Assembly (NCBI GenBank): GCA_964580565.1
Contig: CAZOLN010000003.1
Coordinates: 1-41,499 of the forward strand
From: an uncultured Anaerolineales bacterium
GTDB taxonomy: Bacteria; Chloroflexota; Anaerolineae; B4-G1; DUEL01
Length of the DNA stretch: 41,499 nucleotides
Reading direction: 5' to 3'
Part shown: in pieces, positions 3,887-35,978 of the stretch
How the letters are laid out: the number at the start of each line of letters is the position of its first letter
Numbering within the stretch: position 1 is the first letter of the stretch
Position numbers and translations under genes: made by a program
The notes under the pieces: generated by a model
Seen by the model: only the letters and a program-made list of their open reading frames with translations
Told to the model about the DNA's origin: nothing
Databases searched by the model: none

Positions 3887-6800
3887 TCCGCAGCACCAAC
3901 GGCAGGAACACCCGCCCTGCAGGCACCACGCGCAGCGTTACCCAGTCGCTGCGGGGAGGGTTCGAGCGGGTTGTGGCGACGATCGTCCACGTCCCGAACC
4001 ACTCCGCAGTGTAGACATTCCCATTCCACATCCCACCCGCTTCCTTGTCAATGGTGTACTTACACCAGGGAGTCCAGTCGCCGATGCTGTTGCCGTACAG
4101 GTCGAAGGCCTCCACCGTGGCCGTCACCACCTCCCCGCGACCGACCTCGTAACTGCTGAGGCGGAGTTCGATGTACCCCACCTTGGTTCCAGGCCGCACC
4201 TCGAACGGCTCGCACGCGGCGGAGATCGTCCCATCGGTGACAGTGAGGGTCTGCGTGCCCGCCGTCCCCATCATAAACGCTGTTCCCGTGAACGTGTGCT
4301 TTCCCCCGTCCGCCAGGGTGAACGTATAGGGAGAGTCAACCGTATAGGAGAGGGTGGCCTGCGGATCGGAGGTGAGGAAATAGACGCTGCCCTGGTAGTC
4401 GGTCTTGACGTTGTTGAACCGATCGTAGGCGGTCACCTGCGGCCCGAACGGAGAGAAATGATAGCCTGCGTAGACGACGGTGGGGCACCCCTTGATCCCG
4501 AAAGCGGCGAGCGGGCCGGGCCGGAGGGTCACCGTCACCCGATCCGAGACGCCCCCCGTCTCGGCCCGGACCACCGTCTCCCCCGCCGTCGTGTCGGCCA
4601 GGAGAGGCGCCGTGGCGACGCCGCCCGCGGTCAGCGCGACGTACGGAACGTACGGGAGGTGGGCCGAGCTCCCGCCGCCCACCACCGTGAACGTCACCGG
4701 AACCCGATCGGCGATCGGATCGCCCTGGCCGTCCCACAGCCGGGCCCGCAGGGTCGCGCTGGAAACCCCGTCGGCTACGATAGCGGGGGGATCGGCCTCC
4801 AGAGCCATCTGGGCTGGCGGTGGCGTCACACGGATAAGCCCCGTTGTGTCGGTCCCCAGGGTCGCATGGGTGATGATGACGTGGGCGGTGCCCGTGATGT
4901 GGCCGTGCAGCCGCGCCCAGGTCGCATCGGGGCCGGGGATCAGGTCGCTTGGCACGACGCCTCCGCTCACCGGGACCAAGGTCCAGGAGACCGGCTCCGT
5001 CTGGACGAAGTGGCCCACCTCGTCGCGGGCCACGGCGTACAGATCCGCATAGTAGCCCGAGGCCACCTCCAGCGTATCCACCTCGCCCCCCTCCCCGTCC
5101 GCCTGGCTTTCCACCGCCACGGAGGCGGGCGGTCCGACGCCGCAAACGAGGCCCGATCCCACGGGGTCGGCATCTCCGATGGCGACGCTGGCCCCGCTGA
5201 CGATCCCCTCTACCAAAGAGTCCGTGTCGGCGTCGAACCAGACCTGAAACTCGTTGGGCGTGGCGTACATCGCTCCGTTGGCTGCGCGGACCACCACGAA
5301 GAAGTACACCGTCTCACCGGGGTCCACCACCAGGCGGGCGTCGCCAGGATCGGGGGTGACGGTCCGGTATCCGTCGGCATCCAGCGTCAGGTCGGTCACG
5401 GTGACGACGGCCGTGTCGGCGATCGACCAGCGGCGGTTTCCGCCATCCCGATAGATCCACAGCGTGTCGACGACGTCGTTCGCCTGCGCGGAGGTCAACG
5501 GGGTCCCATCGGGGGCCGTAAACCGGAGACGCCACCAGATCGGGCGGACCCCCTCCTCGGTGGGCAGGCCGTTGTGGGTGAACGCGATGGCGAGCACGTC
5601 GTCCATCTGACCGTGCTGGATGGGCGGCGGGTCGGTCGGCATCGCCGCCTCCGCAACCCCACCGGAGACGTTGCGCCAGAGATCGACCTCGACCCCGTCC
5701 CAGTAATCGCTTCCCTCCACGACGTCGACATCGCCGTCCCGGTCGAAATCGGCCGCAGCCACGGTCCGCACGACCATCTGGCTGGGCGCGATGATGTGGT
5801 CGATCCAGTGGGTGTCGGTCAGGAAATCGCCGAAGGGCACGCCGGAGTTCTCGAACCACATCCGCCGCCAGCGGGTGATCCCGGGCATCACGTCGAGCCA
5901 GCCGTCCCTGTTGAAATCTTCCACGACCAGGGACTCCGCCGAGCCGCCCATCCACGGCGGCGAGGGGGGCGTCCCGTACCAGACCGCCGTGGGCTGCCAG
6001 GTCCAGTGAAACGTGGCCGGCTGTTCATCGAAAGGAGTGCCGTCGTTCTCCCAGACCTTCACCTGGTAGTCCGCCTCGACGTGGTCGGCGGAGACGATGT
6101 CCAGGTCGCCATCCCGATCTAAGTCGGCCAGGACCACGTCGTGGACCGCCGCGCCCCAGTAGCCGTGGTAGTGGCTGGGGTTCTCCTCCGGCCCCAGCGT
6201 CACCGTCGCCGGATCCCGCCCTACGATCGTGACGGTCCAAGCGCCGGCAAAGGGGTCGGTGGGGCTACGCAGGGCAAGCAGTTCATACACGTTTGGCCAC
6301 TCCGACCGAAGGACCGGCGAGATCGGAGTACCCACGGCGGGGGCGTGGTCCGTCCCGGCGACCACGTCGGCCCATCCGTCGCCGTCCAGGTCGCCCACCG
6401 CCACGGCGTTGACGCTGTACGTGAGGACAGCGGCGTCGGTGAAGGACCAGGGGCCGTCAAACGGCGTGCCGTCGTTCCGCCAGAGGGTCACTTTGTGGGC
6501 AGGGCTCGGGTCGGCCAGGTGCTCTCCGGATCCGGTGACCAGGTCGGGCCACCCATCCCGGTCCAGATCGTACACGGCGATGTCACCCACCGGTGCGCCC
6601 GGATCGCCGACGGTGTAACCTGTCCACGGTCCATCCGGCTCGGTGCCCTGGTTCTCCCAGATCCGCAGGAACGGCGGGTCCGTGTGGCCGCTGACGATCT
6701 CCAGATCGCCGTCCTGATCCAGGTCGGCCAGGGCGAGGCTCAGGACCGGTCCCGCCTCTGCCACCAGGTGTGCCGTCCACCCGGCCTCCATAGGCTGCCC

Positions 6801-8297
6801 GTCGCTCGTCCAGACCCGGATCTCGCCGATGCTATCGCCGCTGACCAGGTCGGGCCATCCGTCCCGATCCACGTCGCCGGAGACGAGCGCCCGCACATCG
6901 GCCACGCGGGAACCCACGGGGACCGACGGCTCTGCGAAGAGAGCGCCGCCGTGGATCAAGGTGTTCGGCCACCACGCCACCTCAGGCGCAGCGCCCGCGG
7001 CGACCAAGTCCGGGTCGCCGTCCCCGTCCAGATCGCACGCCACTGCGCGCCAGAGGGGGGCTGCGCTTCCACCCAGCACCACCCCGTCCCAGGCCTGGTC
7101 CAGCCCGCCGACGTTGCGCCAGGCACGGGCGCCCGGGGAGGCGCCTCCGCCCACAGCAGCCAGATCGGGCAGCCCGTCCTCGTCGAAATCGGAGGCGGCC
7201 AACCCGTATGCCGGCCCGCCGAGGCTGCCCAACACCTGGTAGGCAGGCGCGGAGCCACCGAAGGGCTGACCAGGGGCGAAGGGGGTGGCCCAACCCAGGA
7301 TCCGGCCCGCCGCGTCGCCCGCCGCAACATCGGGGAGGCCGTCCCGATCGAAGTCAGCCACCGCGAGGGAGAGGAGATCGTCCCCCGCGCCGCCCCACGT
7401 CTGGGAGAGGGTCCACGACCCGGCGAAGGGCGCGCCGGGGTTCTGCCACAGGCGCAGGTCCCCCGCGGCCGTCGCCAGCACGTCGAGCAGGCCGTCCTGG
7501 TTCAGGTCGGCCACGGCCACGGCGTGGATCGGCCCCCCACCCGTGCTCAACGCGGTCGGCAACCCCCAGTCGGCGGTGAACGGATCGCCGGGGCCCATCG
7601 GGTTGCGCCAGAGGTACACCACCCCGTCGCTCCCGGCGACCACCAGGTCGGGCGCGCCATCCCGATCCAGATCGGCCACCGTCCCCGCCGGGAAGGTCAA
7701 CGCCGTCGAAGCGGTCACCACCCCACCGGTCCCCCAGGCCCCGCCGAAGGGGCTGCCGGGGTTGCGCCACAGGCGGACCTCCCCGTCGCAGAAAGCGACC
7801 AGGTCGGGAAAGGTGTCCCGGTCCAGGTCCGCCGCCGCCAGCCCGTTCACCGCTCCCCCGCAGAGGCCGATCTCCACCGACGTCGAGAACGCCGTTCCTG
7901 CAGCCACCCGCACCGCCGATCCGGCCGCAAAAGCCAGGTCCAGGTCGGCATCGAGGTCCAGATCGGCCACATCCAGCCCGGCCGCGTCCCCACTCGGCGC
8001 GAAGAGGGGCGTCCTCCCACCGAAGGAGAGGGGGTTCCCCTCCACGGGAGGGGAGGCCTGCACGGTCCAGGAGGTGTTCAACAGGGCCAGCAGCGCTACC
8101 GTCAGGAGCGCGGCCCCCGCCACGGGCAGGAGGTAGGCCAACGAATTTCGAACGAACAAACGAACGGCGGCCCACACCGTCCCGGTACGCTGGTCGAGAT
8201 AAACGGAGCCCTGCCCGCCCTCCCGCTGGCGCAGTCCACGGGCCGGCGACCCGGCCTTCTTCCATTCGTTAATTCGTTCCCTCATTCGTTGTTCCAT
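3876..8297 (-). CDS. Giant (about 1473 aa) N-terminally anchored surface protein: FG-GAP/VCBS repeats plus C-terminal bacterial Ig-like (Big) domains
   Basis: TM segment LAYLLPVAGAALLTVALLALL. Well over ten repeats of the D(L/F)D(G/R)DG.(P/L)D(L/V)...W.N type. The C-terminal third has invasin-like Ig repeats (LEADPPAIVADGVSSATLRARLWDGQGDPI). Start trimmed to ATG 8297 (AAGGAG SD), since the ORF-track start 8540 overlaps the SGNH gene. Confidence 0.8.
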   Translation of the reverse strand: MEQRMRERINEWKKAGSPARGLRQREGGQGSVYLDQRTGTVWAAVRLFVRNSLAYLLPVAGAALLTVALLALLNTSWTVQASPPVEGNPLSFGGRTPLFAPSGDAAGLDVADLDLDADLDLAFAAGSAVRVAAGTAFSTSVEIGLCGGAVNGLAAADLDRDTFPDLVAFCDGEVRLWRNPGSPFGGAWGTGGVVTASTALTFPAGTVADLDRDGAPDLVVAGSDGVVYLWRNPMGPGDPFTADWGLPTALSTGGGPIHAVAVADLNQDGLLDVLATAAGDLRLWQNPGAPFAGSWTLSQTWGGAGDDLLSLAVADFDRDGLPDVAAGDAAGRILGWATPFAPGQPFGGSAPAYQVLGSLGGPAYGLAASDFDEDGLPDLAAVGGGASPGARAWRNVGGLDQAWDGVVLGGSAAPLWRAVACDLDGDGDPDLVAAGAAPEVAWWPNTLIHGGALFAEPSVPVGSRVADVRALVSGDVDRDGWPDLVSGDSIGEIRVWTSDGQPMEAGWTAHLVAEAGPVLSLALADLDQDGDLEIVSGHTDPPFLRIWENQGTEPDGPWTGYTVGDPGAPVGDIAVYDLDRDGWPDLVTGSGEHLADPSPAHKVTLWRNDGTPFDGPWSFTDAAVLTYSVNAVAVGDLDGDGWADVVAGTDHAPAVGTPISPVLRSEWPNVYELLALRSPTDPFAGAWTVTIVGRDPATVTLGPEENPSHYHGYWGAAVHDVVLADLDRDGDLDIVSADHVEADYQVKVWENDGTPFDEQPATFHWTWQPTAVWYGTPPSPPWMGGSAESLVVEDFNRDGWLDVMPGITRWRRMWFENSGVPFGDFLTDTHWIDHIIAPSQMVVRTVAAADFDRDGDVDVVEGSDYWDGVEVDLWRNVSGGVAEAAMPTDPPPIQHGQMDDVLAIAFTHNGLPTEEGVRPIWWRLRFTAPDGTPLTSAQANDVVDTLWIYRDGGNRRWSIADTAVVTVTDLTLDADGYRTVTPDPGDARLVVDPGETVYFFVVVRAANGAMYATPNEFQVWFDADTDSLVEGIVSGASVAIGDADPVGSGLVCGVGPPASVAVESQADGEGGEVDTLEVASGYYADLYAVARDEVGHFVQTEPVSWTLVPVSGGVVPSDLIPGPDATWARLHGHITGTAHVIITHATLGTDTTGLIRVTPPPAQMALEADPPAIVADGVSSATLRARLWDGQGDPIADRVPVTFTVVGGGSSAHLPYVPYVALTAGGVATAPLLADTTAGETVVRAETGGVSDRVTVTLRPGPLAAFGIKGCPTVVYAGYHFSPFGPQVTAYDRFNNVKTDYQGSVYFLTSDPQATLSYTVDSPYTFTLADGGKHTFTGTAFMMGTAGTQTLTVTDGTISAACEPFEVRPGTKVGYIELRLSSYEVGRGEVVTATVEAFDLYGNSIGDWTPWCKYTIDKEAGGMWNGNVYTAEWFGTWTIVATTRSNPPRSDWVTLRVVPAGRVFLPLVLRNGP

Positions 8298-8314
8298 TCC
8301 CTGCTCCTTGAACC

Positions 8315-9541
8315 TCACCTCGCCGGGTTGTCGACCAGCGAGCGATCGAGCAGCCACTCGGCGATCCGTTCTCCAGCCAGGTGGTGCCCTTCGACGTTCC
8401 AATGGCCGTCCCGCGGATAGTAGAGCGGCCGACCGGTCTCCTCGGTGCGCTGGCGGAACTCGTCGACCATCTCCAGATACGGGATCCCCTGCTCCTCCAA
8501 GAACGCGCGCATGATCCGGTTGGGCTTGTCCAGGTCCCACTCCCTATCCCGCATCGCAGGATAAGTGCGCAGCGCCCAGGCCAGGTAGTCGCCCTCCACC
8601 AGGTGACGGTCGGGGAGGACCACCACGGCCAACTGGGCACCGTCCGCCTCCACTTCCCGCCTCAACTGGGCGATGATCGCCTTCGTGACCGCCCAGGCCT
8701 CCTCCCACTCAGGGGGATAGTCCTCGGCGTAGAGGTACATCCCCATCGGGATCCCCCCGGCGACCGTCTCCCCCGGGACCGGATCCATCACCCCCACCCG
8801 CTGGAGCCACCCAGCGATCCCCCGCAGCCGCGCCTTGACGTACCGGCCGACCACCGGATAGGCGCGGGAGTTGGCAGCGAGGAACCGCTTGACCCGCTCC
8901 AGGAGGTTCCGCGGCGGTGGCTCCGGCTCGACGCGGAAGGGGAAGTTGACCAGTTCCAGTTCGCCATCCTCGCCGAGCACGAAGAAGGGCTTGTACTCCC
9001 GCCCCATATACCGGGTCTCCATCCCCCGGTGGTTCTCCAGCACGTCGCTGGTCGATTGGAACGCCAGGAGCACCAGGTCGGGCTGGTACCTCCGCCCCTC
9101 CAGCCGGTAGAAGAGCAGTTCCTGGTCGTTCCCGTACCCCCACACCCCACCGTTGATGACCTCAATAGGGCGATCCAGCCGCTCGTTCAGGCGGGCCTCC
9201 AGCACCTCCTGGAAGGAATCCTCCAGCGGGACCTCCAGCGCGTCGGCGAAGGAGTCGCCCAGCACCAGGATGCGGTAGGTGCCCGGCGGCTTCTCGTAGG
9301 GGTATTCTCGGTCCCGCAGCCCCTTTGAGTTGATACGGACATAGGTCTGGAACTCGTCGGGCGCGTCGATATTGACCCACCACCCTTCGGCGCCGGGGAT
9401 GTGGAAGACGCCGAACCGCTCGTCGGGCTGGAAGAGCGGATCGGGCCACCAGTGGAGGGTCCGGGCGGCGACCTCCAGGCCGACCAAGAGGAGCAGCCCG
9501 ACCACCAGCACCACGCCGAGGGCGATGCCGACCTTCCTCAC
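8315..9541 (-). CDS. Membrane-anchored SGNH/GDSL-like hydrolase or O-acetyltransferase (AlgJ/AlgX-like)
   Basis: N-terminal TM GIALGVVLVVGLLLLVGL. Block I ILVLGDSFAD. C-terminal YPRDGHWNVEGH (DxxH block). In-frame GTG at 9541 follows GGGAGAGG and lies 1 nt after the upstream stop. Confidence 0.7.
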   Translation of the reverse strand: MRKVGIALGVVLVVGLLLLVGLEVAARTLHWWPDPLFQPDERFGVFHIPGAEGWWVNIDAPDEFQTYVRINSKGLRDREYPYEKPPGTYRILVLGDSFADALEVPLEDSFQEVLEARLNERLDRPIEVINGGVWGYGNDQELLFYRLEGRRYQPDLVLLAFQSTSDVLENHRGMETRYMGREYKPFFVLGEDGELELVNFPFRVEPEPPPRNLLERVKRFLAANSRAYPVVGRYVKARLRGIAGWLQRVGVMDPVPGETVAGGIPMGMYLYAEDYPPEWEEAWAVTKAIIAQLRREVEADGAQLAVVVLPDRHLVEGDYLAWALRTYPAMRDREWDLDKPNRIMRAFLEEQGIPYLEMVDEFRQRTEETGRPLYYPRDGHWNVEGHHLAGERIAEWLLDRSLVDNPAR

Positions 9542-18535: not shown

Positions 18536-20176
18536 TCACAGATACCCCAGGTCCCGCAGGTGCTCCATCACCTGCGCCTCTTCATCCGCGCTGTACCCCT
18601 CATCCGGCGTCTCGGCCTCCAACGCGACCGCGTCCGCGCGAACGGCCTCCCGCTCGGCGAGGGACGGCGCCAGCAGGTCCCGCAGGATCCGCCCGTCCCA
18701 CTGCTGCGGCACGGGCGTCCCGTAGAGGTGGAGCAGGGTGGCCGGCAGGTCGAGGATGGAGGCCTGCGCCAGGTCGGATGGAGACCGGCGGATGAAATCC
18801 GGCCCGCTCACCACCAGGATCCCCCGGCGGGTGTGGTCGCCGAACCGGTTGAGCCGGTCGACGAAACAGAAGGAGCCCGGCTTGTTGTCCACCACGATGT
18901 CGCAGGCCGAATCGTAGTGGTCGGCGACGACGTCGGGCGCGTCGGCGAGGGCGGGGCCGCGGTAGATCTCCTCCCGTCGGTAGACCCGCGAGAAGATGGG
19001 CCGCCCCTGCGGATCGCGGACCGCAAGGAGGTCGCGGATCAACGCCTCGCGGACCGCCTCGTACTCTTCTGGACCCACAGGCCCTTTGCCGTTCCCTATC
19101 CCTGCGTTGATCAGCAGCGGACCGCTGTTGGACGTGGCGAAGACCTTCGTCCGCGCCCAGTCCAGCCGCTCGGTGAACCGGTAGTCCAGTGCATCCGGCG
19201 CCGACCGGTAGGCCGCCTCCCAGAAGCGGCGCCGCAGCGAGGCCGGCGCTCCCCTGAGCAGGAGCCGGAGGACGCCCCGCACGAGCCGCTCCTTCATTCC
19301 CTGCAGCCCCCTTGCCCGCAGGTACCGGGACAGGGCGAAGTTGATTTCATAGGGAGGAATGTCCAACGAGTGTTCGCCGTAGGCGGCATACCCGTGCTGG
19401 ACCAGCCACGGCCCCAACAGGAAGGCGGTCCGCACCCGCCGGGAGCCGTGGTCGGACATCAGGATGAAGTTCGCCTCCGGGTACCGCTCCATCCACCGGC
19501 CGATCTGTGCGTCCACGTTGACCAGCACCCGCTCGATATACTCCATCCCCGGCGTGAAGTGGTTGACCCGATCCAGCGCGGCGTAGTTGAAGACCAGGAG
19601 GTCGACCTCGTAGGCCTCCGCCAGCATCATCGCGGCCTCGGTCTGGCGCGCCTCGTACTCGATCCACGCCTGGACGTAGGTCTCGACGCCCTCATCCAGG
19701 AGGGCACGGTCCACGTCCACCCGGTAGGGGCCGAACCGATCCTCCACCCGATCCAACGCCTCCGTCGGATAGGTGAACCGGCGGGCGCTCCGGGGGACGG
19801 GGATCCCCGGCACGACGAACCCGTCGAGAGGGCGTGGGGGATACGTGACGGGCACGTTGAACAGCCCCACCCGGACCCCCTCCCGGTTCAGGTAGGTCCA
19901 GAAAGGAGCAGATTTCAACGCGGCGGCGTTGACCATCCGTCCCCTGCCATCCTCGCGGCGGACCGACCAGTCGAAGACGCCGTGTTTTCCCGGGTTGACC
20001 CCGGTGATGAAGGAAGAGAAGGCCACCGGCGTGATGGGGGGCATCGTGGACTCCAGAACGCCCCGCGCGCCCCGCTCGATCAAACGGGCGACGTTCGGCA
20101 TCCGCCCCGCCGCCAGCAGGGGGTCCAGGTACTCCCAACAACCACTGTCGATACTCAGCACCAACGTTTTCCTCAT
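18536..20176 (-). CDS. Type I phosphodiesterase / nucleotide pyrophosphatase family (alkaline-phosphatase superfamily)
   Basis: LVLSIDSGCWEYL, MPPITPVAFSSFITGVNPGKHGV (catalytic Thr context), ILMSDHGS. ATG 20176 forms an ATGA overlap with the Wzt stop and sits directly after the octamer array. Confidence 0.75.
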   Translation of the reverse strand: MRKTLVLSIDSGCWEYLDPLLAAGRMPNVARLIERGARGVLESTMPPITPVAFSSFITGVNPGKHGVFDWSVRREDGRGRMVNAAALKSAPFWTYLNREGVRVGLFNVPVTYPPRPLDGFVVPGIPVPRSARRFTYPTEALDRVEDRFGPYRVDVDRALLDEGVETYVQAWIEYEARQTEAAMMLAEAYEVDLLVFNYAALDRVNHFTPGMEYIERVLVNVDAQIGRWMERYPEANFILMSDHGSRRVRTAFLLGPWLVQHGYAAYGEHSLDIPPYEINFALSRYLRARGLQGMKERLVRGVLRLLLRGAPASLRRRFWEAAYRSAPDALDYRFTERLDWARTKVFATSNSGPLLINAGIGNGKGPVGPEEYEAVREALIRDLLAVRDPQGRPIFSRVYRREEIYRGPALADAPDVVADHYDSACDIVVDNKPGSFCFVDRLNRFGDHTRRGILVVSGPDFIRRSPSDLAQASILDLPATLLHLYGTPVPQQWDGRILRDLLAPSLAEREAVRADAVALEAETPDEGYSADEEAQVMEHLRDLGYL

Positions 20177-21417
20177 GCAGCCTCTGCTCCCTCGCTCCTT
20201 TGCTCCCTTGCTCCCTGCACCCTCCATCGATGCGGCAGGTACACCAACGCTCCCCCCTGATCGAACCGGGAGCCCACCACGAAGTGGACCGCTCCGTCGA
20301 TCTGGTCATAGGTGAGCGGAGAAAAATGGTCCCGCTTGATGCCGACGTTGACGTTGTACTCCCCGTTGAGGAGGTTCAGGCTCTCGTAGATGACCTCGGC
20401 GACCCCCTCATCCCCCGGCTCGAAGTGGCCGTGGATGTCGAACCGGGCCGTCGTGGTACCGTGGAGGATGCGGTATCCCTGACGGATGCGGGAGTAGAAG
20501 ACGGGGTCGTCCACCGGCGCGTTGGCGCGGAAGTGGATGCGCAGCCTCATCGGCTCCGCCGTCAGGAAGGAGTTGCGCGGCTCCCCCTCCCCGTCGAGCA
20601 GTTCCACCCGCGTGATCTCCATCTCCCGACCGCCCCCTCCTCGCCTATCCACCTCCCGCCGCAGCGCCTCGCCAGCGAAGCCGGTGTGGTAGAGATCCAA
20701 CGCCTCCTGGGTCTCCCCCAGGAACATCACCTTGCCCTTGTAGAGGAACAGGGTCCGATCGCACAACTTCTGGATCATCTCCTTGTTGTGAGAGACCACC
20801 ACCATCGTCTTGCCGGCATCCCGGAACTCCTGGATCCGCCGGACGCACTTATCGCGGAACATGTAATCCCCAACGGCCAGCACCTCGTCGATGAGCAGCA
20901 CGTCCGGATCCACGTGGACCGCCACGGCGAAGCCCAGTCGGACGAACATCCCGGAGGAGTACCGCTTGACCGGCATGTCGATGAACTCCTCCAGTTCGGA
21001 GAAGGCGACGATGCTGTCGAACTTCTCGTCGATCTCCCGCCGCTTCAGCCCCAGGATGGCGCCGTTGAGGTAGATGTTCTCCCGCCCGCTCAGGTCGGGA
21101 TGGAAGCCCGCGCCCAACTCGATGAGGGCGGAGACCCTGCCGCGCACCGTGATCCGCCCGCTGGTGGGGCGGGTGACCCGGGAGAGGAGTTTCAGGACGG
21201 TCGTCTTCCCCGCCCCGTTGGGGCCGATGATGCCCAGCACCTCCCCCTTCTTGACCTCAAAACTCACCCCGTCCAGCGCCCAGAGCAGGTCCCCCCGATC
21301 CTTCCCATCCCGCCCGACCACCTTGCCCAGCAGGTTCGGCAGCGCGTCCCGCAGGCTCCCCCGTCCGAACCGACGGCGGTAGGCCTTTCGCACGTTCTCA
21401 AACTCGATCGCGGCCAT
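20173..21417 (-). CDS. wzt: Polysaccharide-export ABC transporter ATP-binding protein with C-terminal Wzt_C-type carbohydrate-binding domain
   Basis: Walker A GPNGAGKTT, signature YSSGMFVRL, Walker B LLIDEVLAVGD. About 150-aa beta-rich C-terminal domain (ITRVELLDGEGEPRNSF...LNGEYNVNVGI). Start trimmed to ATG 21417 (MAAIEFENV). Confidence 0.9.
   Translation of the reverse strand: MAAIEFENVRKAYRRRFGRGSLRDALPNLLGKVVGRDGKDRGDLLWALDGVSFEVKKGEVLGIIGPNGAGKTTVLKLLSRVTRPTSGRITVRGRVSALIELGAGFHPDLSGRENIYLNGAILGLKRREIDEKFDSIVAFSELEEFIDMPVKRYSSGMFVRLGFAVAVHVDPDVLLIDEVLAVGDYMFRDKCVRRIQEFRDAGKTMVVVSHNKEMIQKLCDRTLFLYKGKVMFLGETQEALDLYHTGFAGEALRREVDRRGGGGREMEITRVELLDGEGEPRNSFLTAEPMRLRIHFRANAPVDDPVFYSRIRQGYRILHGTTTARFDIHGHFEPGDEGVAEVIYESLNLLNGEYNVNVGIKRDHFSPLTYDQIDGAVHFVVGSRFDQGGALVYLPHRWRVQGAREQRSEGAEAA
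20186..20225 (-). repeat. Octamer tandem array x5, RAGGGAGC on the gene strand
   Basis: Plus strand reads gctccctc gctccttt gctccctt gctccctg caccctcc. Lies directly upstream of ATG 20176. Confidence 0.8.
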
Positions 21418-21434: not shown

Positions 21435-22223
21435 CTATATGACGTCCGCAAAGACCGCCTCCGCCCGCTTGAAGTAGGCGTAGGCCAGCACGAAGACCAC
21501 AAGGGAGATCGACGCCGCCACCAGCAACTGCGTGGGATCCACCCACTCTCTGTAGAGGATCACCCGCCGGTACCCGTCGATGAGCACCGCCATCGGATTG
21601 AGCATGTAGAGGGCTCGGAACCGCTCCGGGACCATATCCACAGGGTAGATGATGGGGGTCAGGTACATCCACAACTGGACCCCCAGCGGGACGATGAACC
21701 GGATGTCCCGGTAGAAGACGTTCAACGCGGAGGCGAAGAGGACCACGCCGCTCGTGAGCAGCACCTGGATCAGAAGCAGCAGAGGGACGAGGGCGAAGGT
21801 CGGACCCAAGGGGAAGCGGTAGAAGAGCATCATTAGGACGAAGACCACGGAGGCGATGGAGAGATCCACCAGACCGGCAAGGACCGAGGCCAGAGGGAGG
21901 ATCTCCCGGGGGAAGTAGATCTTGCTCACCAGGTGCATGTTGCGCACCAGGCTCTCCGTCCCCAGGGTGATCGAGGTGACGGTGAAGGTCCAGGGCAGAA
22001 GGGCGGAGTAGTAGAAGATCGGATAGGGGATCCCGCCGGTTGGGAGGCGGACAAAGTAGGAGAAGACCACGGCCATGATGATGGTAGCCGAAAGCGGCTG
22101 GAGGATGGCCCAGGCCACCCCCAGCAGGGACTGCTTGTAACGGACCTTCACCTCCCGACCGACCCAACTCCAGAGAAGTTCTCTGTATGCGACCAACTCA
22201 CGAACGTATGCGACCACTTCCAC
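21435..22223 (-). CDS. wzm: ABC-2 type polysaccharide-export permease
   Basis: YRELLWSWVGREVKVRYKQSLLGVAWAILQPL, the canonical ABC-2 N-terminus, plus six hydrophobic helices. GTG start at 22223, or 22217 (better spaced from GGGAGG). Confidence 0.9.
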   Translation of the reverse strand: MEVVAYVRELVAYRELLWSWVGREVKVRYKQSLLGVAWAILQPLSATIIMAVVFSYFVRLPTGGIPYPIFYYSALLPWTFTVTSITLGTESLVRNMHLVSKIYFPREILPLASVLAGLVDLSIASVVFVLMMLFYRFPLGPTFALVPLLLLIQVLLTSGVVLFASALNVFYRDIRFIVPLGVQLWMYLTPIIYPVDMVPERFRALYMLNPMAVLIDGYRRVILYREWVDPTQLLVAASISLVVFVLAYAYFKRAEAVFADVI

Positions 22224-22314
22224 CTCCCATCATAAACCGCCCAGAGGAGACGTTGACATCCTGCATGCGTGCACCATCGTTGCCAAGGTCCGCCAAAGCC
22301 CGGGCGGTTGGTTC

Positions 22315-24117
22315 TTAGTTTAGGGGAGCCGGCTCTTTTTGAGGGCTCTTCTCGACCTCTGCGACCTCCAGGGGCGGTAGAAGCCGTTCCAGATCCTCCC
22401 GTCGGATGACCCAGCGCCAGCGGACGTGCTCCGCCTGCAGCCGACCCGTGCGGCACCAGCGGCGGACCACAGCGGGGCGGACTCCCAGCACCCTTGCGGC
22501 CTCGCCGACGGTCAGGGTGGGCCGTTCGGCCAGGGGAGCCCGTTCGGCTGCCCATCGCGGCGTCGGATGGAGGCGCAACTGCCGCCGGGGCACCCGGTTG
22601 AACATCAGCCAGGTCGGGACCCCTGGGACGTGCTCCTCCAGCGACCTCAGCATCTGCAGGAGAGAAGCGACCCGCGTCCGTCGATGCCCGCACGCCATCA
22701 GCACGCTGTCACACCTCCGCGCGATGAGGAGGGTCTCAGGGGAGGTGAGGCCAGCGGCGCTGTCGATGAGGATGACGTCGGCCCCCTTCTTGAGTTCCTC
22801 CAGCAACGCGCCCCATCGGTCGCCGACGAACAGAACCGTCGGATCGGACACGGGCCGACCGGCAGGCAGCAGGTGGAGACGGTCTACATCGGTGGAGTTC
22901 CTCTCGATGAGATCCCAAGCAGTGGACAGTTTCCGCTCTCCCCGCAGCAGTTCGGCCAGGCCCTCCAGGTTGGGCAGATCGAACCACTCGTGGAGCGTGG
23001 GGGAACGCAGGTCCCCATCGACCAAGAGGGTGCGCAACCCTGCCTCGGCCAGGGCCTTCCCCAGGCTGGCCGCGACGAAGGTCCTGCCGACCCCGGCGTC
23101 CGCCCCGGCGACCAGGACGACCGCCGGCCAGCGCTCCTCCAACTCCATCACCAGAGCCGTCCGCAGGTGCCGCAACGCCTCCATATCGGCCGGTCGGAAA
23201 GGCAGGGTGGAAAGCAGCCGCTCCCGCCCCACTTTGACGCGGGGGAGCGCCCCCAACACCGGACGATCCAGGAACGCACCCTCCTCCACCGCCTCCCACC
23301 GGACCGTGTCGTCCAGCCGTTCGACGACCAGCACGCCGGCGACCGCCAACGCCAGCCCCGCGACGGCCGCCACGCCGACCGTCATCCCCGTCTGCCGGGG
23401 GAGGGGGGCCGCGGGCTCCGCCGCTGGCTCGAAGATGGAGAGCGCGTTAGGTGCCTCTATCCGAAGGGAGTCCAGCAGGCTGGCGTAGGTGGACTGGTAG
23501 TTGGTCCTCAGCGTCTCCAACTGTTCCAGCCGCCGTCGAGCCTCCTCCAGTTCCGCAGCCGAGGTCAGTTCGGGCAGCGTTCTCTGGAGATCGGTGATCT
23601 CCTCATCCAGCCGTTCGATCCGCGCCTCCAGGTCGTCCAACTGTGCGCGGATGAACTCCCGTCGCTGCCGCTCCTCCTCCTGCGAGACCGGGCTCCGCCT
23701 GACCAGTTCCTCGGCGATCGCGTTGGCAACGGCCGCCGCCAACCGGGGGTCCTGATCCACCACCTGGATCTCCAGCAACTGAGCCTCCGGGTAAACCCGG
23801 GTCGTGATCTGGCTCGCCAGCTGGGTCGGGCTCCGATCGAGACCCAGCCGGTCGATGACCGCCTGCGTCACCGGACCCTCTCGGGCCAGGCGGGCGTAGG
23901 CGTTGGCCAGATTGTTGGCGATGGTCAACTGCCACGGGTCCGGATCGGGGGTCTGCAGGCTGGTCCCGACCATCAGCGTGGCCTTCGCGCGATAGAAATT
24001 CGGCTGGCGGGACACCAGAGCGCCTGCGACCAGGGTGGGGATCAGCACGCTGAGCACAAACAGCCAGCTCCAGCGACGGGCGATCCCCCAATATCGCCAA
24101 AAACGCTTACTCATCAT
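22315..24117 (-). CDS. Wzz/PCP domain + BY-kinase-like P-loop domain (Walker A Lys replaced by Arg) + C-terminal excisionase-type HTH
   Basis: Two TMs flank a coiled-coil region. VAGADAGVGRT (Walker A with R), LLVDGDLRSP (A'), DVILIDSAAG (B). No Tyr cluster. C-terminus LTVGEAARVLGVRPAVVRRWCRTGRLQAEHVRWRWVIRREDLERLL. ATGA overlap with the response regulator stop. Confidence 0.8.
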   Translation of the reverse strand: MMSKRFWRYWGIARRWSWLFVLSVLIPTLVAGALVSRQPNFYRAKATLMVGTSLQTPDPDPWQLTIANNLANAYARLAREGPVTQAVIDRLGLDRSPTQLASQITTRVYPEAQLLEIQVVDQDPRLAAAVANAIAEELVRRSPVSQEEERQRREFIRAQLDDLEARIERLDEEITDLQRTLPELTSAAELEEARRRLEQLETLRTNYQSTYASLLDSLRIEAPNALSIFEPAAEPAAPLPRQTGMTVGVAAVAGLALAVAGVLVVERLDDTVRWEAVEEGAFLDRPVLGALPRVKVGRERLLSTLPFRPADMEALRHLRTALVMELEERWPAVVLVAGADAGVGRTFVAASLGKALAEAGLRTLLVDGDLRSPTLHEWFDLPNLEGLAELLRGERKLSTAWDLIERNSTDVDRLHLLPAGRPVSDPTVLFVGDRWGALLEELKKGADVILIDSAAGLTSPETLLIARRCDSVLMACGHRRTRVASLLQMLRSLEEHVPGVPTWLMFNRVPRRQLRLHPTPRWAAERAPLAERPTLTVGEAARVLGVRPAVVRRWCRTGRLQAEHVRWRWVIRREDLERLLPPLEVAEVEKSPQKEPAPLN

Positions 24118-24848
24118 GCACACTCCTTACCAACCCGCTCTTCCTCTTCGCTCGGAAGGTGGTCCCCTGCGAAGTAGTAACCGATCCCCCACCGCGTGCG
24201 AATGTAGCGCGGATCGGACGGGTCCACCTCGATCTTCCGCCGCAAGTAGCGGATGTAGACGCTCAAGTACCCGATTTCCTCCGCATACTCCGGCCCCCAG
24301 ACGTTGGTGAGCAGTTCCCTGTGGGGCACGACCCGCCCCCCCTGGCGGACCAGGTAGAGGAGGAGACGCTGTTCCGTGGGCGTGAGGTGGATCGCGACCC
24401 CCTGTCGCGCGACCTTGCCGTCTGCCAGGTCGACGTAGAGATTGCCGTCGTCATACACCTCCTGCCACGTTCCCCCCGCGTTCGCCCGCGCACGACGGAG
24501 GATGGCCCGAAGGCGAAACACCAACTCCTCCAGACTGCAAGGCTTGCTCAGATAGTCATCCGCCCCCAGGGAGAACCCCTTGATGACCGATTCCGTCTCC
24601 GTTCGGGCAGAGAGGATCAGGATGGGAACGTCGCACACGTCCCGAAGCCGCCGGCAGACCGCCCACCCGTCCATCTGCGGCATCATGATGTCGAGGACGA
24701 TGACGTCGGGACGCACCTCGTACGCACGTCGGAGTCCCTCCTCCCCGCTCTCGGCGGTGATGACGCGAAAACCCTCCCGCTCTAGGGTCAACCGGAGTAG
24801 CCCCAGCAGTTGCGGATCATCGTCGATCACCAGTACCGTTTCCTTCAT
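24114..24848 (-). CDS. OmpR/PhoB-family response regulator (first gene of the glycan operon)
   Basis: Receiver VLVIDDD...VIVLDIMMPQMDG...LSKP. Winged helix LTPTEQRLLLYL...YIRYLRRKIE...YIRTRWGIGYYF. SD GAGGAGGGGGG. Confidence 0.92.
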   Translation of the reverse strand: MKETVLVIDDDPQLLGLLRLTLEREGFRVITAESGEEGLRRAYEVRPDVIVLDIMMPQMDGWAVCRRLRDVCDVPILILSARTETESVIKGFSLGADDYLSKPCSLEELVFRLRAILRRARANAGGTWQEVYDDGNLYVDLADGKVARQGVAIHLTPTEQRLLLYLVRQGGRVVPHRELLTNVWGPEYAEEIGYLSVYIRYLRRKIEVDPSDPRYIRTRWGIGYYFAGDHLPSEEEERVGKECA

Positions 24849-24885
24849 CCCCCCTCCTCATTCCTTAAACGTCTGCGTAATTCTT

Positions 24886-24894
24886 AAAATACCA
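24886..24894 (-). promoter_or_regulatory. Possible extended -10 (TGGTATTTT) for the response-regulator-led glycan operon
   Basis: Lies in the only AT-rich stretch between the upstream terminator and ATG 24848. No convincing -35 box. Confidence 0.25.
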
Positions 24895-24925
24895 GAACGT
24901 CGTATGGGTTAGGTGAAAGAAAGGT

Positions 24926-24990
24926 CAAAAAACAACGAAAAACCCCCTCCCGTCGCTGGAGGGGGTCCAAAAGACCGGGTTACAACCCGG
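24926..24990 (-). terminator. Tandem intrinsic terminators after the second response regulator
   Basis: Minus strand reads CCGGGT-TGTA-ACCCGG TCTTTT, then ACCCCCTCC-AGCGACG-GGAGGGGGT TTTTCGTTGTTTTTT. Confidence 0.65.
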
Positions 24991-24993
24991 AGG

Positions 24994-25698
24994 CTACAGA
25001 AGATCCTCCGCCTCAAAGAAGTAACCGCTACCGCGGACGGTGCGGATGTAACGAGGCGATTTGGGGTCCGGCTCGATCTTGCGCCGCAGACGATAGATGT
25101 ACTGCTTCACCAGGTCCGGCTCACCGATCCGCTCCGGCCCCCACACCCGGGTCAGGATGGCGTCGGGGCTCAGGACCCGACCGGCGTGCCGGATGAGGAG
25201 ACGGAGGACCTCGAACTCCTTGGGGGTCAGATACACCGTCCGGTTGCCGATGACCAGTTCGTGGCGACCACAATCCAGCATCACCGAAGCGGCCGGGAAC
25301 AGGACCTCCTGCTCCCGGTCCTCCCGCTCGCCGGCCCGGCGCAGGGAGGCGAAGAGACGGCCGATCAACTCCGAACGGTTGAACGGCTTCACAACGTAGT
25401 CGTCCGCCCCGAGGGAGAAACCACGTACCACATCCTCAATGGTTCCACGGGCGGTGACGAAGATGATGGGCACGTCGGTCATCTCCCGCAACCGTCGGCA
25501 GACCTCGAACCCGTCCACCTCCGGCATCACTACGTCGAGGAGGACCACGTCTGGGTGGAGCTGGTAAGCCATCCGCAGGCCAGTCAGTGCATCCTGAGCC
25601 GTGAAGACCTCAAAGCCCTCCGCGCCCAGGATCACCTTGAGCATCTTTAGCACATCGGGTTGGTCATCGATCGCAAGGACGCGGAACCGCCGACGCAT
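24994..25698 (-). CDS. OmpR/PhoB-family response regulator (monocistronic)
   Basis: VLAIDDQ...VVLLDVVMPEVDG...VVKP. LTPKEFEVLRLL...YIYRLRRKIE...YIRTVRGSGYFF. Start trimmed to ATG 25698 because the track start (TTG 25731) lies at the predicted transcription start. Confidence 0.92.
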   Translation of the reverse strand: MRRRFRVLAIDDQPDVLKMLKVILGAEGFEVFTAQDALTGLRMAYQLHPDVVLLDVVMPEVDGFEVCRRLREMTDVPIIFVTARGTIEDVVRGFSLGADDYVVKPFNRSELIGRLFASLRRAGEREDREQEVLFPAASVMLDCGRHELVIGNRTVYLTPKEFEVLRLLIRHAGRVLSPDAILTRVWGPERIGEPDLVKQYIYRLRRKIEPDPKSPRYIRTVRGSGYFFEAEDLL

Positions 25699-25871: not shown

Positions 25872-26807
25872 TCAAAGCCCCTCCAAAGTACCCTGGATCT
25901 GCGCGCGGATCGTCTTCCTCTGCTCAAGGATCTGCCGGAGGGCGTCGCGCGTCTCATCCCACGCCGTCGCCAATTGAACGACCCGATCCAGGAGAGACTC
26001 GGCAGGATCGAGGACATGGACAAGGAGGGGTTGAACCAGGGTGGCCCCCAGGCCGGTGGAGGCGCGCGAACTGAACCACCCATCCATCGGCTCCAGGATC
26101 CGTCGGTGAAGCCCTTCGACCAGGTCCGGGAGCATCGTCACGACCTCGCCGAGCCGTTCCAACCCATCCTGTACCTGACCGGCGGCGGGACCGGGCAGGT
26201 GGTCCAGGATCCAACGCAGGAAACTCCCCATCGTCTCCGCCAGAGGACCGGTGATCTCCAGCAGGCCGTTAACGCTGTTCTCCAGCGCCAGCATCCGCTG
26301 GGAGAGGGCAGCGAGGGTCTGTTGGAGCCACTGGAAGGCGGATTGGAGGGAAGGGAAACGGGACTGGAAGTCCAGCAACGCGGTTCGGCCGACCTCCAGG
26401 CCGGAGCGGAGGGCCTCCGCCCCCTCCCGCAGCCCGCCGATCAGGCCATCCAGTGTCTCCAGCGCCTGCTCCAGCCGTCCATCCAGCCCGGCCTCCTCCA
26501 TCGCTTCGTACAGGGCGACGACCTCGCGCTGCCGGTTCACCTCGGCCGAGAGGTGGCCGTAGCCCATCTGCCAGACGGCCAGCCCGCCCGTCACGGCCAC
26601 GACGGTTCCCCCGGCCACCGCCGCCTTGAGGAACCGCCGCCGGGAGGTCCTCCCCGGCACCGCCACCGATCCCGAGACCGCCTGTCGGGTCAGCCGGTCC
26701 AGTTCTTCCAACGTCCCGTCGTCCAGCCGCTCCAGCCGGTCGATGATCCGAGCCATCCGCGCAGCGCGGCGGATCCTGGTCGTCCGCACATCCCCCGTTG
26801 AGGTCAT
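25872..26807 (-). CDS. Hypothetical helical protein with internal Tat-like motif and one TM/signal segment
   Basis: SRRRFLKAAVAGGTVVAVTGGLAVW at about residues 55-80. The remainder is Leu/Glu/Ala-rich and predicted helical. I recognise no family. SD GGTGGAGGGAAG. Confidence 0.55.
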   Translation of the reverse strand: MTSTGDVRTTRIRRAARMARIIDRLERLDDGTLEELDRLTRQAVSGSVAVPGRTSRRRFLKAAVAGGTVVAVTGGLAVWQMGYGHLSAEVNRQREVVALYEAMEEAGLDGRLEQALETLDGLIGGLREGAEALRSGLEVGRTALLDFQSRFPSLQSAFQWLQQTLAALSQRMLALENSVNGLLEITGPLAETMGSFLRWILDHLPGPAAGQVQDGLERLGEVVTMLPDLVEGLHRRILEPMDGWFSSRASTGLGATLVQPLLVHVLDPAESLLDRVVQLATAWDETRDALRQILEQRKTIRAQIQGTLEGL

Positions 26808-34367: not shown

Positions 34368-35978
34368 ATGAGTATGGAAAGCGAGAAGGAAGCGGGGAAG
34401 AGAACGGATTCCGGTTACTACAACCACATCACCGATGACCTGGACGCTTTGCTATCCGTCCTGCCGGAGGACATCCGCGACGCGCTGCAGCGCATCGGCC
34501 GGCGGGACGATCTTTTGGAGGTGATCCTGGACCTGGGTCGCGTCCCCACCGCCCGTTTCACCGACGGGGAGGTGGTGCTGCGCGATACCGAGGTCACGCG
34601 GGAGGAGATCCAACACGTGGTGGACCGGGTGGGGGAGTTCGATGCCGACAACCGGGCCGGCATCGCCCGCACCCTCCACCGCATCGCCGCCATCCGCAAC
34701 CGTCGCGGCGACATCGTCGGCCTCACCTGCCGCGTGGGCCGCGCCGTCTACGGCACCATCGCCATCATCCAGGACATCATCGAGAGCGGCAAGAGCATCC
34801 TCCTCGTCGGGCGGCCCGGCGTGGGCAAGACGACGATGCTCCGGGAGGCGGCCCGGGTCCTGGCGGAGAAGAAGCGGGTCATCATCGTCGACACCTCCAA
34901 CGAGATCGGCGGCGACGGGGACATCCCCCACCCCGCCGTCGGCCGCGCCCGCCGGATGCAGGTGGAGATGCCGTCCCTCCAGCACGAGGTGATGATCGAG
35001 GCGGTGGAGAACCACAACCCAGAGGTGATCATCATCGACGAGATCGGCCGGGAACTGGAGGCGATGGCGGCGCGGACCATCGCCGAGCGGGGCGTCCAAC
35101 TGATCGCCACCGCCCACGGCAACACGCTGGACAACCTCCTCCTGAACCCCACCCTGTCCGACCTGGTGGGCGGCATCGAGAGCGTGACCCTCTCCGACGA
35201 GGAGGCCCGCCGGAGGGGGACCCAGAAGACCATCCTGGAGCGGCGCGCGCCGCCCACGTTCGACGTGCTGATCGAGATCCAGGACCGGCAGCGGCTCCTG
35301 ATCCACCACAACGTCGCCGAGGCGGTCGACAGCCTCCTGCGGGGCCGTCCCATCCGGGCGGAACTGCGGTATCGGGATGGGAAGGGTGAGATCCACTCGG
35401 AGTGGGTGACCCCCCTCTCCATCGAGGAGCGGGAGGCCGGGCGGGCGGAGCGGGCAGGGCGCCCCCCGTCCCGACCGGAACCGGCCGCGGTGGAGTCCGC
35501 CGGCATCGACGTGACCACGCCGGTGCGGATCTTCCCCTACGGCATCGCCCGCAACCGGCTCACCCGCGCCGCCCGGCACATGCAGGTGCCGGTCTATCTG
35601 GTGGACGATCTGGGCGAGGCGGAGGTGATGATCACCACCAAGGGGTTCTACCGGAAGCGGCCCAACCTGGTGGTGGACGCCGAACGGCGCGGGCTCCCCA
35701 TCTACGTCCTGCGGGCCAACACGGTGGCCCAGATGGAGGCCTGCCTGCGGGACCTGTTCGACCTGGACACCGCCGCGTCCGACCCGCTGCGGCAAGCCCT
35801 GCAGGAGACCCGGGAGGCGATCCGGCAGGTGCAGGCCGGTGTACCGGAGGTGGAACTCTCCCCCCAGAACGCCTACATCCGCCGCCGCCAGCATGAGATG
35901 GCCCGCGCGGCCAACCTTTCCTCCTACTCCGTGGGGAAGGGAGCCAACCGAAGAGTGCGTATCTACCGGGAGGAATGA
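34368..35978 (+). CDS. R3H-domain AAA ATPase (ycf45 / SpoIIIAA-like)
   Basis: Walker A LLVGRPGVGKTT, Walker B VIIIDEIG, ATAHG, C-terminal R3H-like YIRRRQHEMA...RRVRIY. Confidence 0.85.
   Translation: MSMESEKEAGKRTDSGYYNHITDDLDALLSVLPEDIRDALQRIGRRDDLLEVILDLGRVPTARFTDGEVVLRDTEVTREEIQHVVDRVGEFDADNRAGIARTLHRIAAIRNRRGDIVGLTCRVGRAVYGTIAIIQDIIESGKSILLVGRPGVGKTTMLREAARVLAEKKRVIIVDTSNEIGGDGDIPHPAVGRARRMQVEMPSLQHEVMIEAVENHNPEVIIIDEIGRELEAMAARTIAERGVQLIATAHGNTLDNLLLNPTLSDLVGGIESVTLSDEEARRRGTQKTILERRAPPTFDVLIEIQDRQRLLIHHNVAEAVDSLLRGRPIRAELRYRDGKGEIHSEWVTPLSIEEREAGRAERAGRPPSRPEPAAVESAGIDVTTPVRIFPYGIARNRLTRAARHMQVPVYLVDDLGEAEVMITTKGFYRKRPNLVVDAERRGLPIYVLRANTVAQMEACLRDLFDLDTAASDPLRQALQETREAIRQVQAGVPEVELSPQNAYIRRRQHEMARAANLSSYSVGKGANRRVRIYREE

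Follow-up and report, generated by a model that had tools for sequence, protein, structure and literature searches.

A Wzc-type polysaccharide co-polymerase with a degenerate BY-kinase domain and a C-terminal excisionase-type helix-turn-helix in an uncultured Anaerolineales bacterium

Introduction

The window analyzed in this work is a stretch of 41,499 nucleotides from an uncultured Anaerolineales bacterium (contig CAZOLN010000003.1 of assembly GCA_964580565.1, positions 1 to 41,499 of the forward strand). On its minus strand, at 22315-24117, lies a gene for a 600-residue protein that joins a polysaccharide co-polymerase (PCP), a domain with the fold of the bacterial tyrosine kinases (BY-kinases) and a helix-turn-helix (HTH) of the HTH_17 family. 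The protein is a Wzc-type (PCP-2a-like) polysaccharide co-polymerase, and its gene heads an operon for the synthesis and export of glycan in this bacterium, a member of the Chloroflexota of the Anaerolineae/Thermoflexia type. An earlier note, written from the letters alone, treated the degenerate kinase domain and the HTH fusion as one oddity. Both turn out to be real. The fusion is not peculiar to the degenerate protein though, because it belongs to a whole family whose typical members are canonical kinases.

We believe the kinase part has become a pseudokinase that still forms a ring, and that the ring is a scaffold presenting BldC-type HTHs for cooperative DNA binding, the kinase gate having been lost. 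We would put the probability of this reading at roughly 0.5. Four other explanations compete with it, and each is taken up below where the evidence that bears on it is given.

Architecture of the fusion protein

The open reading frame is uninterrupted, and its GC content follows the codon pattern of real genes, with GC1 > GC2 << GC3 (GC3 is 0.84 in a contig of 66% GC). Its ATG overlaps the TGA of the gene upstream, an OmpR-type response regulator that we call RR1, in the sequence ATGA at 24114-24117; this is the translational coupling that the earlier note had pointed out. The division into PCP, BY-pseudokinase and HTH_17 parts rests on Pfam and NCBIfam domains and on a full-length AlphaFold2 model, which was built from an alignment of 37 sequences and has a mean predicted local distance difference test score (pLDDT) of 85.

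Two transmembrane (TM) helices bracket an extracytoplasmic co-polymerase domain. A hydropathy scan and the model agree on the first, at 24010-24069 (minus strand, like every feature of this protein; residues ~17-36, modelled helix 17-36), and on the second, at 23320-23385 (residues ~245-266, modelled helix 243-268). The domain between them (23386-24009, residues 37-244) matches TIGR01006 with an E-value of 2e-10 and TIGR03007 with one of 7e-9, neither reaching its cut-off, and is modelled as an alpha/beta structure plus a long helical hairpin (146-183, 187-219). By Foldseek, the model as a whole resembles full-length Wzc (9r62, 7nhr; best E 1.6e-27, range E 1e-27 to 1e-24). Hydropathy, AlphaFold2 and Foldseek therefore all agree with what had been proposed from the letters, a Wzz/PCP domain between two TM helices followed by a P-loop domain, and the positions of Walker A, A' and B and of the HTH were verified as well.

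The kinase domain has lost its lysine and its tyrosines

The P-loop domain lies at 22582-23205 (residues ~305-512). NCBIfam models of BY-kinases (TIGR03018, TIGR01007, Wzc, Etk and EpsG) match residues 306-496 with E-values of 1e-21 to 1e-26, all of them sub-cut-off, and the Pfam CbiA match (E 2.3e-8) exceeds its gathering score. Foldseek superposes this part on the kinase domains of Wzc, CapB, Etk and BceF with a target-normalized TM-score (TMt) of 0.77-0.90 and a root-mean-square deviation (rmsd) of 2-3 Å.

We tested three defining features of a BY-kinase and found none of them. The first is the catalytic lysine. Walker A reads GADAGVGRT (residues 338-346) rather than GK[ST], and Arg345, encoded by AGG at 23083-23085, falls in the HMMER alignment onto K540 of E. 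coli Wzc (a Met in the K540M crystal construct). The AGG codon is common to the window, to the orthologue in the related locus L001 (84% protein identity) and to that in L010 (78%), while the sister lineages have AAG at this position. The codons around it differ between these genes. Because AGG recurs in two diverged orthologues amid differing neighboring codons, the Lys-to-Arg change that the earlier note had spotted is not a read error. The second feature is the tyrosine cluster, and here the deficit exceeds what had been claimed: there is no Tyr in the entire 336-residue cytoplasmic part, linker included. The linker, RRQLRLHPTPRW... (22522-22581, residues 513-532), occupies the site at which canonical family members carry their cluster, and at residues 517-526 its pLDDT is below 50. 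The third is the curated score. TIGR01007 ('polysaccharide biosynthesis tyrosine autokinase') gives the window protein 79.7 bits against a cut-off of 108.05.

Other features that mark a BY-kinase are present, namely a P-loop fold together with a two-TM co-polymerase, the DxDxR of Walker A' with the Asp of Walker B, and the ExxRxxR motif. In the alignments Walker A' (LLVDGDLRSP, 22999-23028) is intact, and Walker B (DVILIDSAAG, 22750-22779) keeps its Asp with Ala-Ala in place of the usual Pro-Pro. D367 of LLVDGDLR and D452 of ILIDS are invariant across the fusion family. The ring-oligomerization motif ExxRxxR, defined for BY-kinases in PMC9800525, is kept as EALRHLR at 23161-23181 (residues 313-319).

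A BY-kinase fold without the catalytic residue, the Tyr tail or both is what is called a BY pseudokinase. Such proteins have already been described, EcpK and HfsB in PMC12004946 and GumC in PMC9800525, and a phosphorylation-independent scaffold role has been proposed for them. To judge by its residues the window protein is a BY pseudokinase of the fused type, so the concept is a known one. It cannot run the octamer/monomer autophosphorylation cycle of Wzc because the catalytic Lys is an Arg and there is no cytoplasmic acceptor Tyr. We take the retained ExxRxxR motif, the Thr of Walker A, Walker A' and the Asp of Walker B as a hint that the protein still depends on forming a ring and perhaps on binding nucleotide.

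The HTH_17 domain

The C-terminal winged helix-turn-helix (wHTH) lies at 22378-22515 (residues 535-580), and the excisionase-type assignment made earlier stands, since both Pfam HTH_17 (PF12728; E 1.7e-10, 41.4 bits against a cut-off of 27) and the TIGR01764 'excisionase family' model pass their cut-offs, the latter barely (29.5 bits against 28.8). The BldC subfamily model NF033787 matches only in part, at 17.1 bits against a cut-off of 77. Among solved structures the nearest sequences are Streptomyces BldC (6amk, E 9e-4) and a mycobacteriophage Xis; a word-index protein search with the HTH segment alone gave no matches. A separate structure model of the C-terminal 81 residues (core pLDDT 83-90) was superposed by Foldseek on RacA, its top match, and on BldC, Pukovnik Xis, Tn916 Xis, RdfS and the N-domains of MerR proteins; the matched structures of BldC, RacA, Xis and RdfS include DNA-bound ones. 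The fit to the BldC and Xis structures (6ama, 6amk and 4j2n) has a TMt of ~0.8 and an rmsd of 1-2 Å. The E-values are weak (~4e-3), and the matches cannot tell wHTH subtypes apart.

The structures of BldC on DNA show what such a domain can do (PMC5859096). Arg30 reads bases, Trp31 contacts the backbone, kinks the DNA and forms part of the head-to-tail interface, the basic wing inserts into an AT-rich minor groove, and the protein assembles into head-to-tail multimers on direct repeats. In the fusion family the equivalents of Arg30 and Trp31 are R553, nearly invariant, and W554, invariant; the wing is basic family-wide and rich in His and Arg in the window protein. BldC-type domains have no dimerization module and work as cooperative multimers on direct repeats, so their attachment to an oligomeric ring is mechanistically suggestive.

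The structural matches also allow a different use of the domain. The HTH could be an architectural tether of the RacA or Xis kind that holds the chromosome, or the cluster's own locus, at the membrane beside the exporter, with no specific role in transcription. Its top structural match, RacA, is a chromosome-anchoring protein of B. subtilis, the architectural excisionases and RdfS, which oligomerize on DNA, rank close behind, and the BldC paper itself stresses the likeness of the fold to Xis and RacA (PMC5859096). A multivalent ring in the membrane would suit tethering as well. We nevertheless think this quite improbable. The order of matches at E ~4e-3 cannot separate wHTH subtypes, and the gene's fixed place at the head of polysaccharide clusters, beside regulators, points to locus-specific control.

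An old fusion family in the Chloroflexota

A search of a collection of 5.8 billion proteins found 44 clusters with a precomputed HTH_17 and full-length coverage. All of them come from metagenome-assembled genomes of Chloroflexota (Anaerolineales, Thermoflexia and 'Chloroflexi bacterium'). A hidden Markov model built from the family's own HTH detected a C-terminal HTH in 59 of 264 fetched proteins, among them 18 of the best 150 representatives from a 50%-identity library, and in all 59 the HTH is C-terminal. GTDB species genomes were scanned with an alignment of 16 closer relatives and then checked for the HTH; the full-length fusion is present in 17, again all Chloroflexota (Anaerolineae, Thermoflexia, Caldilinea/Caldilineaceae and Bellilinea). 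Databases call such proteins 'helix-turn-helix domain-containing protein' or 'polysaccharide biosynthesis tyrosine autokinase'. The earlier note knew of no described example, and our literature search of 8 million full texts likewise located no description of a BY-kinase/co-polymerase fused to an excisionase-type HTH.

A neighbor-joining tree of 196 sequences was made from the co-polymerase and kinase part only, leaving the HTH out. All 56 HTH-bearing proteins in it form one clade, and the 12 HTH-less sequences inside that clade are shortened proteins or secondary losses. This monophyly implies that the fusion arose once and is old. It is also under selection. The ratio of nonsynonymous to synonymous substitution rates (dN/dS), computed against the 84% orthologue in L001, comes to 0.23 in the kinase domain, compared with 0.11 in the co-polymerase domain and 0.10 in the HTH. 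The kinase domain is thus the least constrained folded part, but values this low mean that purifying selection maintains both the degenerate kinase domain and the HTH.

These data dispose of the possibility, raised in the earlier note, that the fusion is a frameshift or a mis-assembly, or for that matter an error of gene calling. Only the low-confidence linker (pLDDT < 50 at residues 517-526) could hint at two units. Independent samples and assemblers yielded the same uninterrupted architecture in 59 protein clusters, 17 GTDB species genomes have it too, linker and HTH are both under purifying selection, and the HTH-bearing proteins are monophyletic. We regard this explanation as refuted.

Stepwise loss of the phosphorylation cycle

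The typical member of the family is a canonical BY-kinase with S-P-x4-G-K-[ST], D-x-D-x-R, the Walker B Asp and ExxRxxR, and between its kinase domain and its HTH it has 2-6 Tyr in clusters such as YYSAY, GYYYSY or SYYHYY. It is important to realize what this means: since typical fusion members are canonical kinases, the odd kinase and the HTH fusion are two separate events.

We also observe that canonical members often carry a basic motif, RRR..LW..LR.RLPF, directly after the cluster (for example RRRKDSLWRSLRRRLPFIGGG in P0013). In the family alignment (columns ~560-620) the window's clade lacks the motif, which could form a helix that binds the membrane or serves as an interface and that disappeared along with the Tyr cluster.

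The loss can be followed through the window's close relatives. GRT occurs only in P0001-P0005, namely the window protein and the four relatives nearest to it (at least 75% identity), all without linker Tyr. P0006 (64% identity) has GKT and no linker Tyr, P0007-P0011 (49-57% identity) have a single Tyr, and family members outside P0001-P0011 have GK[ST] and 2-6 linker Tyr. The second Asp of Walker A' has become Asn in P0003 and P0006-P0010 (loci L001, L007, L009 and L013), which, as the alignment has it, is an independent catalytic-site substitution within the same Tyr-poor clade. The TIGR01007 scores (cut-off 108) are 151.7 bits for P0017, 138.7 for P0028, 107.0 for P0009, 105.4 for P0044, 79.7 for the window and 77.9 for P0006. 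This series traces how one sub-clade lost the phosphorylation cycle step by step, with the window protein at the end.

A link between this loss and a switch of exporter from Wzx/Wzy to Wzm/Wzt was considered and rejected as a rule. The Tyr-less clade does adjoin Wzm/Wzt (L001, L007, L008 and L010), but L024 and L027 combine Wzm/Wzt with GKT and a Tyr cluster, and P0009, with one Tyr, adjoins Wzx.

One could argue instead that catalysis was never lost. In that case Arg345 would stand in for the lysine and the protein would be an active kinase or ATPase, phosphorylating RR1 or sugar-nucleotide enzymes, for example, in trans. The clade with the Lys-to-Arg change does keep the Walker A Thr, both Walker A' Asp (P0003 has Asn at the second) and the Asp of Walker B, and phosphorylation of other substrates is a known activity of BY-kinases (PMC4007543). 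There is also a curated family, NF047398 'KGGVGR-motif variant AAA ATPase', whose existence implies that Arg at the Walker A Lys site is a recurrent natural variant of the P-loop. Residues 341-493 match this model with an E-value of 2.8e-14, but the score of 53.9 bits is below the cut-off of 90 and the KGG is absent; a full-text literature search located nothing on the family. The K540M mutation abolishes the function of Wzc (PMC9800525). Zero cytoplasmic Tyr, the Asn that sister lineages have in place of an Asp in Walker A' and a dN/dS that is higher in the kinase domain than in the other domains all fit a loss of catalysis and not a retargeting of it. An active enzyme is, in our opinion, very unlikely, and a pseudokinase scaffold accounts for the domain better.

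The operon and its regulators

Every gene between 25698 and 281 is encoded on the minus strand. Two OmpR-type response regulators come first, each identified by Pfam. RR2 (24994-25698, probable ATG at 25698) has its own promoter and terminator, and RR1 (24114-24848; Response_reg plus Trans_reg_C) leads directly into the fusion gene. The next gene in the operon encodes a Wzm-type ABC-2 permease (21435-22223, Pfam ABC2_membrane), followed by a Wzt-type ABC ATPase with a Wzt_C glycan-binding domain (20173-21417, Pfam ABC_tran plus Wzt_C) and a protein of the type I phosphodiesterase family. Then come glycosyltransferases, an AsnB-like amidotransferase, a GHMP kinase, an acetyltransferase and an AlgX/SGNH protein, a 1554-residue FG-GAP/Big_1 protein, further glycosyltransferases, and a Wzy_C protein (281-1843) at the far end of the cluster.

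The pairing of RR1 with the fusion gene is widespread. In 14 distinct related loci, whose fusion proteins are 37-87% identical, the two genes overlap at stop and start by 1-8 nt, and RR2 usually lies just upstream of the pair. Compared with the L001 orthologues, RR2 is the most conserved of the three at 93% identity, followed by RR1 at 87% and the fusion protein at 84%. In Caldilinea-type members (L019, L022-L024), which keep the HTH, the 6 kb upstream contain no response regulator. Upstream regulators are likewise missing from P0045 and P0049, the two closest relatives without an HTH among those examined.

This pattern raises the question of whether the HTH has a protein partner rather than a DNA site. 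It could chiefly dock the co-translated RR1, so that the membrane protein would sequester and release the regulator as an anti-activator or partner switch, with DNA binding secondary or absent. The overlap in 14 loci and the lack of a regulator upstream of P0045 and P0049 are what this idea would lead one to expect. There is a precedent in TorI, an excisionase-fold inhibitor of the OmpR-type regulator TorR, which it binds at the C-terminal DNA-binding domain (PMC3509656), and MinD/ParA-type ATPases that control transcription factors exist, such as the 'antiactivator' FleN, which is among the PDB sequence matches. However, the Caldilinea-type members have kept their HTH with no response regulator nearby, the equivalents of the DNA contacts of BldC (R553, W554 and the basic wing) are conserved family-wide, and the C-terminal helix that TorI uses to bind TorR (PMC3509656) has no clear counterpart here. 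We consider docking of RR1 unlikely as the main function, and we favor an HTH on the pseudokinase ring that binds DNA. The place of the gene at the head of the cluster, directly behind RR1 and its strongly conserved promoter block, counts for this reading.

No gene for a phosphotyrosine phosphatase or a histidine kinase adjoins the fusion gene within the cluster. Among the related loci, L009 has an Hpt gene, and in L027 a kinase-like C-terminus precedes RR1. With no sensor partner in the window's cluster and these genes in two relatives, the input is probably encoded elsewhere.

Several other observations concern the neighborhood. The sole 'PTPase' Pfam match in the window (PF25516) falls in a 536-residue SpoIIIAA-like AAA plus R3H protein at 34368-35978 on the plus strand; it lies 10 kb off on the other strand and is probably unrelated to the cluster. 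Upstream of RR2, at 25872-26807 on the minus strand, a gene that is syntenic in L001 encodes a 311-residue protein with no Pfam match and a twin-arginine-like segment, RRRFLKAAVAGG. The FG-GAP repeat/Big_1 protein inside the glycan cluster (3876-8540, minus strand), which has a similar gene in the L009 cluster, may sit at the cell surface in association with the polymer. Finally, a Wzt with a Wzt_C domain co-occurs in this Chloroflexota cluster with a Wzc-like co-polymerase and a Wzy_C protein. In the O-antigen systems of Gram-negatives Wzt_C recognizes the chain-terminating residue.

Control regions

A promoter and terminator scan places the RR2 promoter, TTGACA-17-TAGTAT, at 25764-25736 and an intrinsic terminator after RR2 at 24968-24940, both on the minus strand. 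Since this terminator follows RR2, the RR1-fusion-wzm operon starts at a conserved 56-bp promoter block upstream of RR1 (24877-24932, minus strand), TTTTTTGACCTTTCTTTCACCTAACCCATACGACGTTCTGGTATTTTAAGAATTACG. The block is near-identical in the window, L001, L007 and L010 and recognizable in L015, L033 and L014. It is near-invariant across loci whose proteins share only 64-84% identity, while the sequence flanking it has diverged, including the terminator just upstream. It holds a direct repeat with a spacing of 11 bp, TTTGACC N4 TTTCACC, which occurs once in the window, as well as an extended -10 (TGGTATTTT) and an AT-rich AATT segment. This layout is likely that of an OmpR/PhoB-type site overlapping the -35 and followed by the extended -10. 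The block is the one strongly conserved promoter element near the fusion gene, and it has more the look of a response-regulator site than of an evident operator for the HTH. The same block is also a candidate site for the HTH.

A second conserved element lies between the fusion gene and wzm (22235-22309, minus strand). Its invariant inverted arms of 10-11 nt, AACCGCCCGGG and CTGGGCGGTT, enclose a variable interior of ~55 nt, and the element lies just before the wzm ribosome-binding site. RNAalifold finds a conserved outer stem, and because the arms are invariant there is no covariation that would favor an RNA function over a DNA function. Either an RNA stem or a split DNA site would account for the element.

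Proposed mechanism

We can now spell out how a pseudokinase scaffold with DNA-binding HTHs would work. The kinase domain would most likely be a constitutive oligomeric scaffold, possibly one that binds nucleotide, as has been proposed for EcpK, HfsB and GumC. The HTH_17, which we take to be of the BldC/Xis type and ancestral to the whole family, would be gathered by the ring into several copies at the membrane, and these could engage DNA cooperatively, with the control regions of the cluster itself as the probable sites. The canonical relatives would have one thing more. Their Tyr cluster sits exactly between the ring and the HTH, so phosphorylation would gate HTH binding: by driving the octamer/monomer cycle it would change the valency of the HTHs. 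In the window's lineage this gate would be gone and control would presumably fall on RR1 and RR2, RR1 being translationally coupled to the fusion protein. As a hypothesis, the coupling of polymer assembly to transcription that the earlier note raised is plausible.

Several points weigh against this proposal. The architecture, the lost residues, the conservation of the family, the purifying selection and the synteny are direct observations, whereas the ring, DNA binding by the HTH, the sites it would use and the effect on regulation are things that we infer. The full-length model has a predicted TM-score (pTM) of 0.54 and is uninformative on the oligomer and on the placement of the HTH. Access to DNA would be limited because the HTH is held within ~20 residues of a ring attached to the membrane; regulators tethered to the membrane are known, among them ToxR and CadC. 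The 11-bp direct repeat suits an OmpR/PhoB-type regulator and so need not involve the HTH at all. A change of Lys to Arg preserves nucleotide binding in some P-loop enzymes, and residual activity toward other substrates would be compatible with the sequence.

A broader idea about the family is more tentative, and we hold it to be possible rather than probable. The family may be a set of undescribed membrane-anchored signal transducers in which phosphorylation of the Tyr cluster sets the state of the ring and thereby gates either DNA binding by the HTH or capture of a regulator. The window protein would then be a 'locked' pseudokinase version. If this were true, the status of polysaccharide polymerization would be read out as transcription without any diffusible messenger.

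Comparison with known systems

Like Wzc, Etk and CapAB (PCP-2a), the window protein has a two-TM co-polymerase followed by a P-loop kinase fold with Walker A', the Walker B Asp and ExxRxxR, and its gene lies in a polysaccharide cluster. It differs from them in the Arg in place of the Walker A Lys, the lack of a Tyr cluster, the extra C-terminal wHTH and a much smaller outer domain, and it scores below every NCBIfam BY-kinase cut-off. The adjoining exporter is of the ABC type, Wzm/Wzt, and not the flippase Wzx, although a Wzy_C gene (281-1843) is present.

With EcpK of Myxococcus, HfsB of Caulobacter and GumC of Xanthomonas it shares a BY-kinase fold that lacks the catalytic residue, the Tyr tail or both. 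EcpK and HfsB stand alone, have lost all Walker motifs and are paired with a separate PCP. In the window protein the PCP is fused in cis, Walker A', the Walker B Asp and ExxRxxR are kept, an HTH has been added, and close relatives record the steps of a recent decay. The fused arrangement of GumC is nearer to it than the EcpK/HfsB subtype. The HTH has its counterparts in BldC of Streptomyces, Xis, TorI, RdfS and RacA, which have the same HTH_17/MerR-like winged helix without a coiled-coil dimerization domain. Those are small soluble proteins, whereas here the domain is the C-terminal appendage of a 600-residue membrane protein.

The nearest precedent for the proposed logic is probably type Ia ParA (P1 ParA and F SopA). 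There a P-loop ATPase of the MinD/ParA superfamily is covalently linked to an HTH, and its nucleotide and oligomer state governs DNA binding and autoregulation. The differences are considerable: type Ia ParA is soluble, has its HTH at the N-terminus and a KGGxxK[ST] Walker A, and has no role at the membrane or in polysaccharide synthesis. Beyond the superfamily there is no specific homology between it and the fusion protein.

Significance

BY-kinases are thought to work via an autophosphorylation cycle that alters their oligomeric state. A conserved family that carries a DNA-binding domain behind the Tyr cluster offers a direct and testable output for this cycle. The close relatives of the window protein form a natural series from active kinase through Tyr-less protein to Lys-to-Arg pseudokinase, a set of ready-made 'mutants' for studying what the ring does once its phosphorylation is no longer possible. 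The interest of this work lies mostly in the family, with its possible phospho-gated and membrane-tethered DNA-binding output, and in the series from active to dead, and less in the Lys-to-Arg change itself.

The window protein also extends the BY pseudokinases to the Chloroflexota, to clusters with a Wzm/Wzt exporter and to a form fused in cis. For a phylum that is poorly studied and mostly uncultured, it gives us a handle on the regulation of envelope polymers, and the fusion may be what links the assembly of such a polymer to the control of genes.

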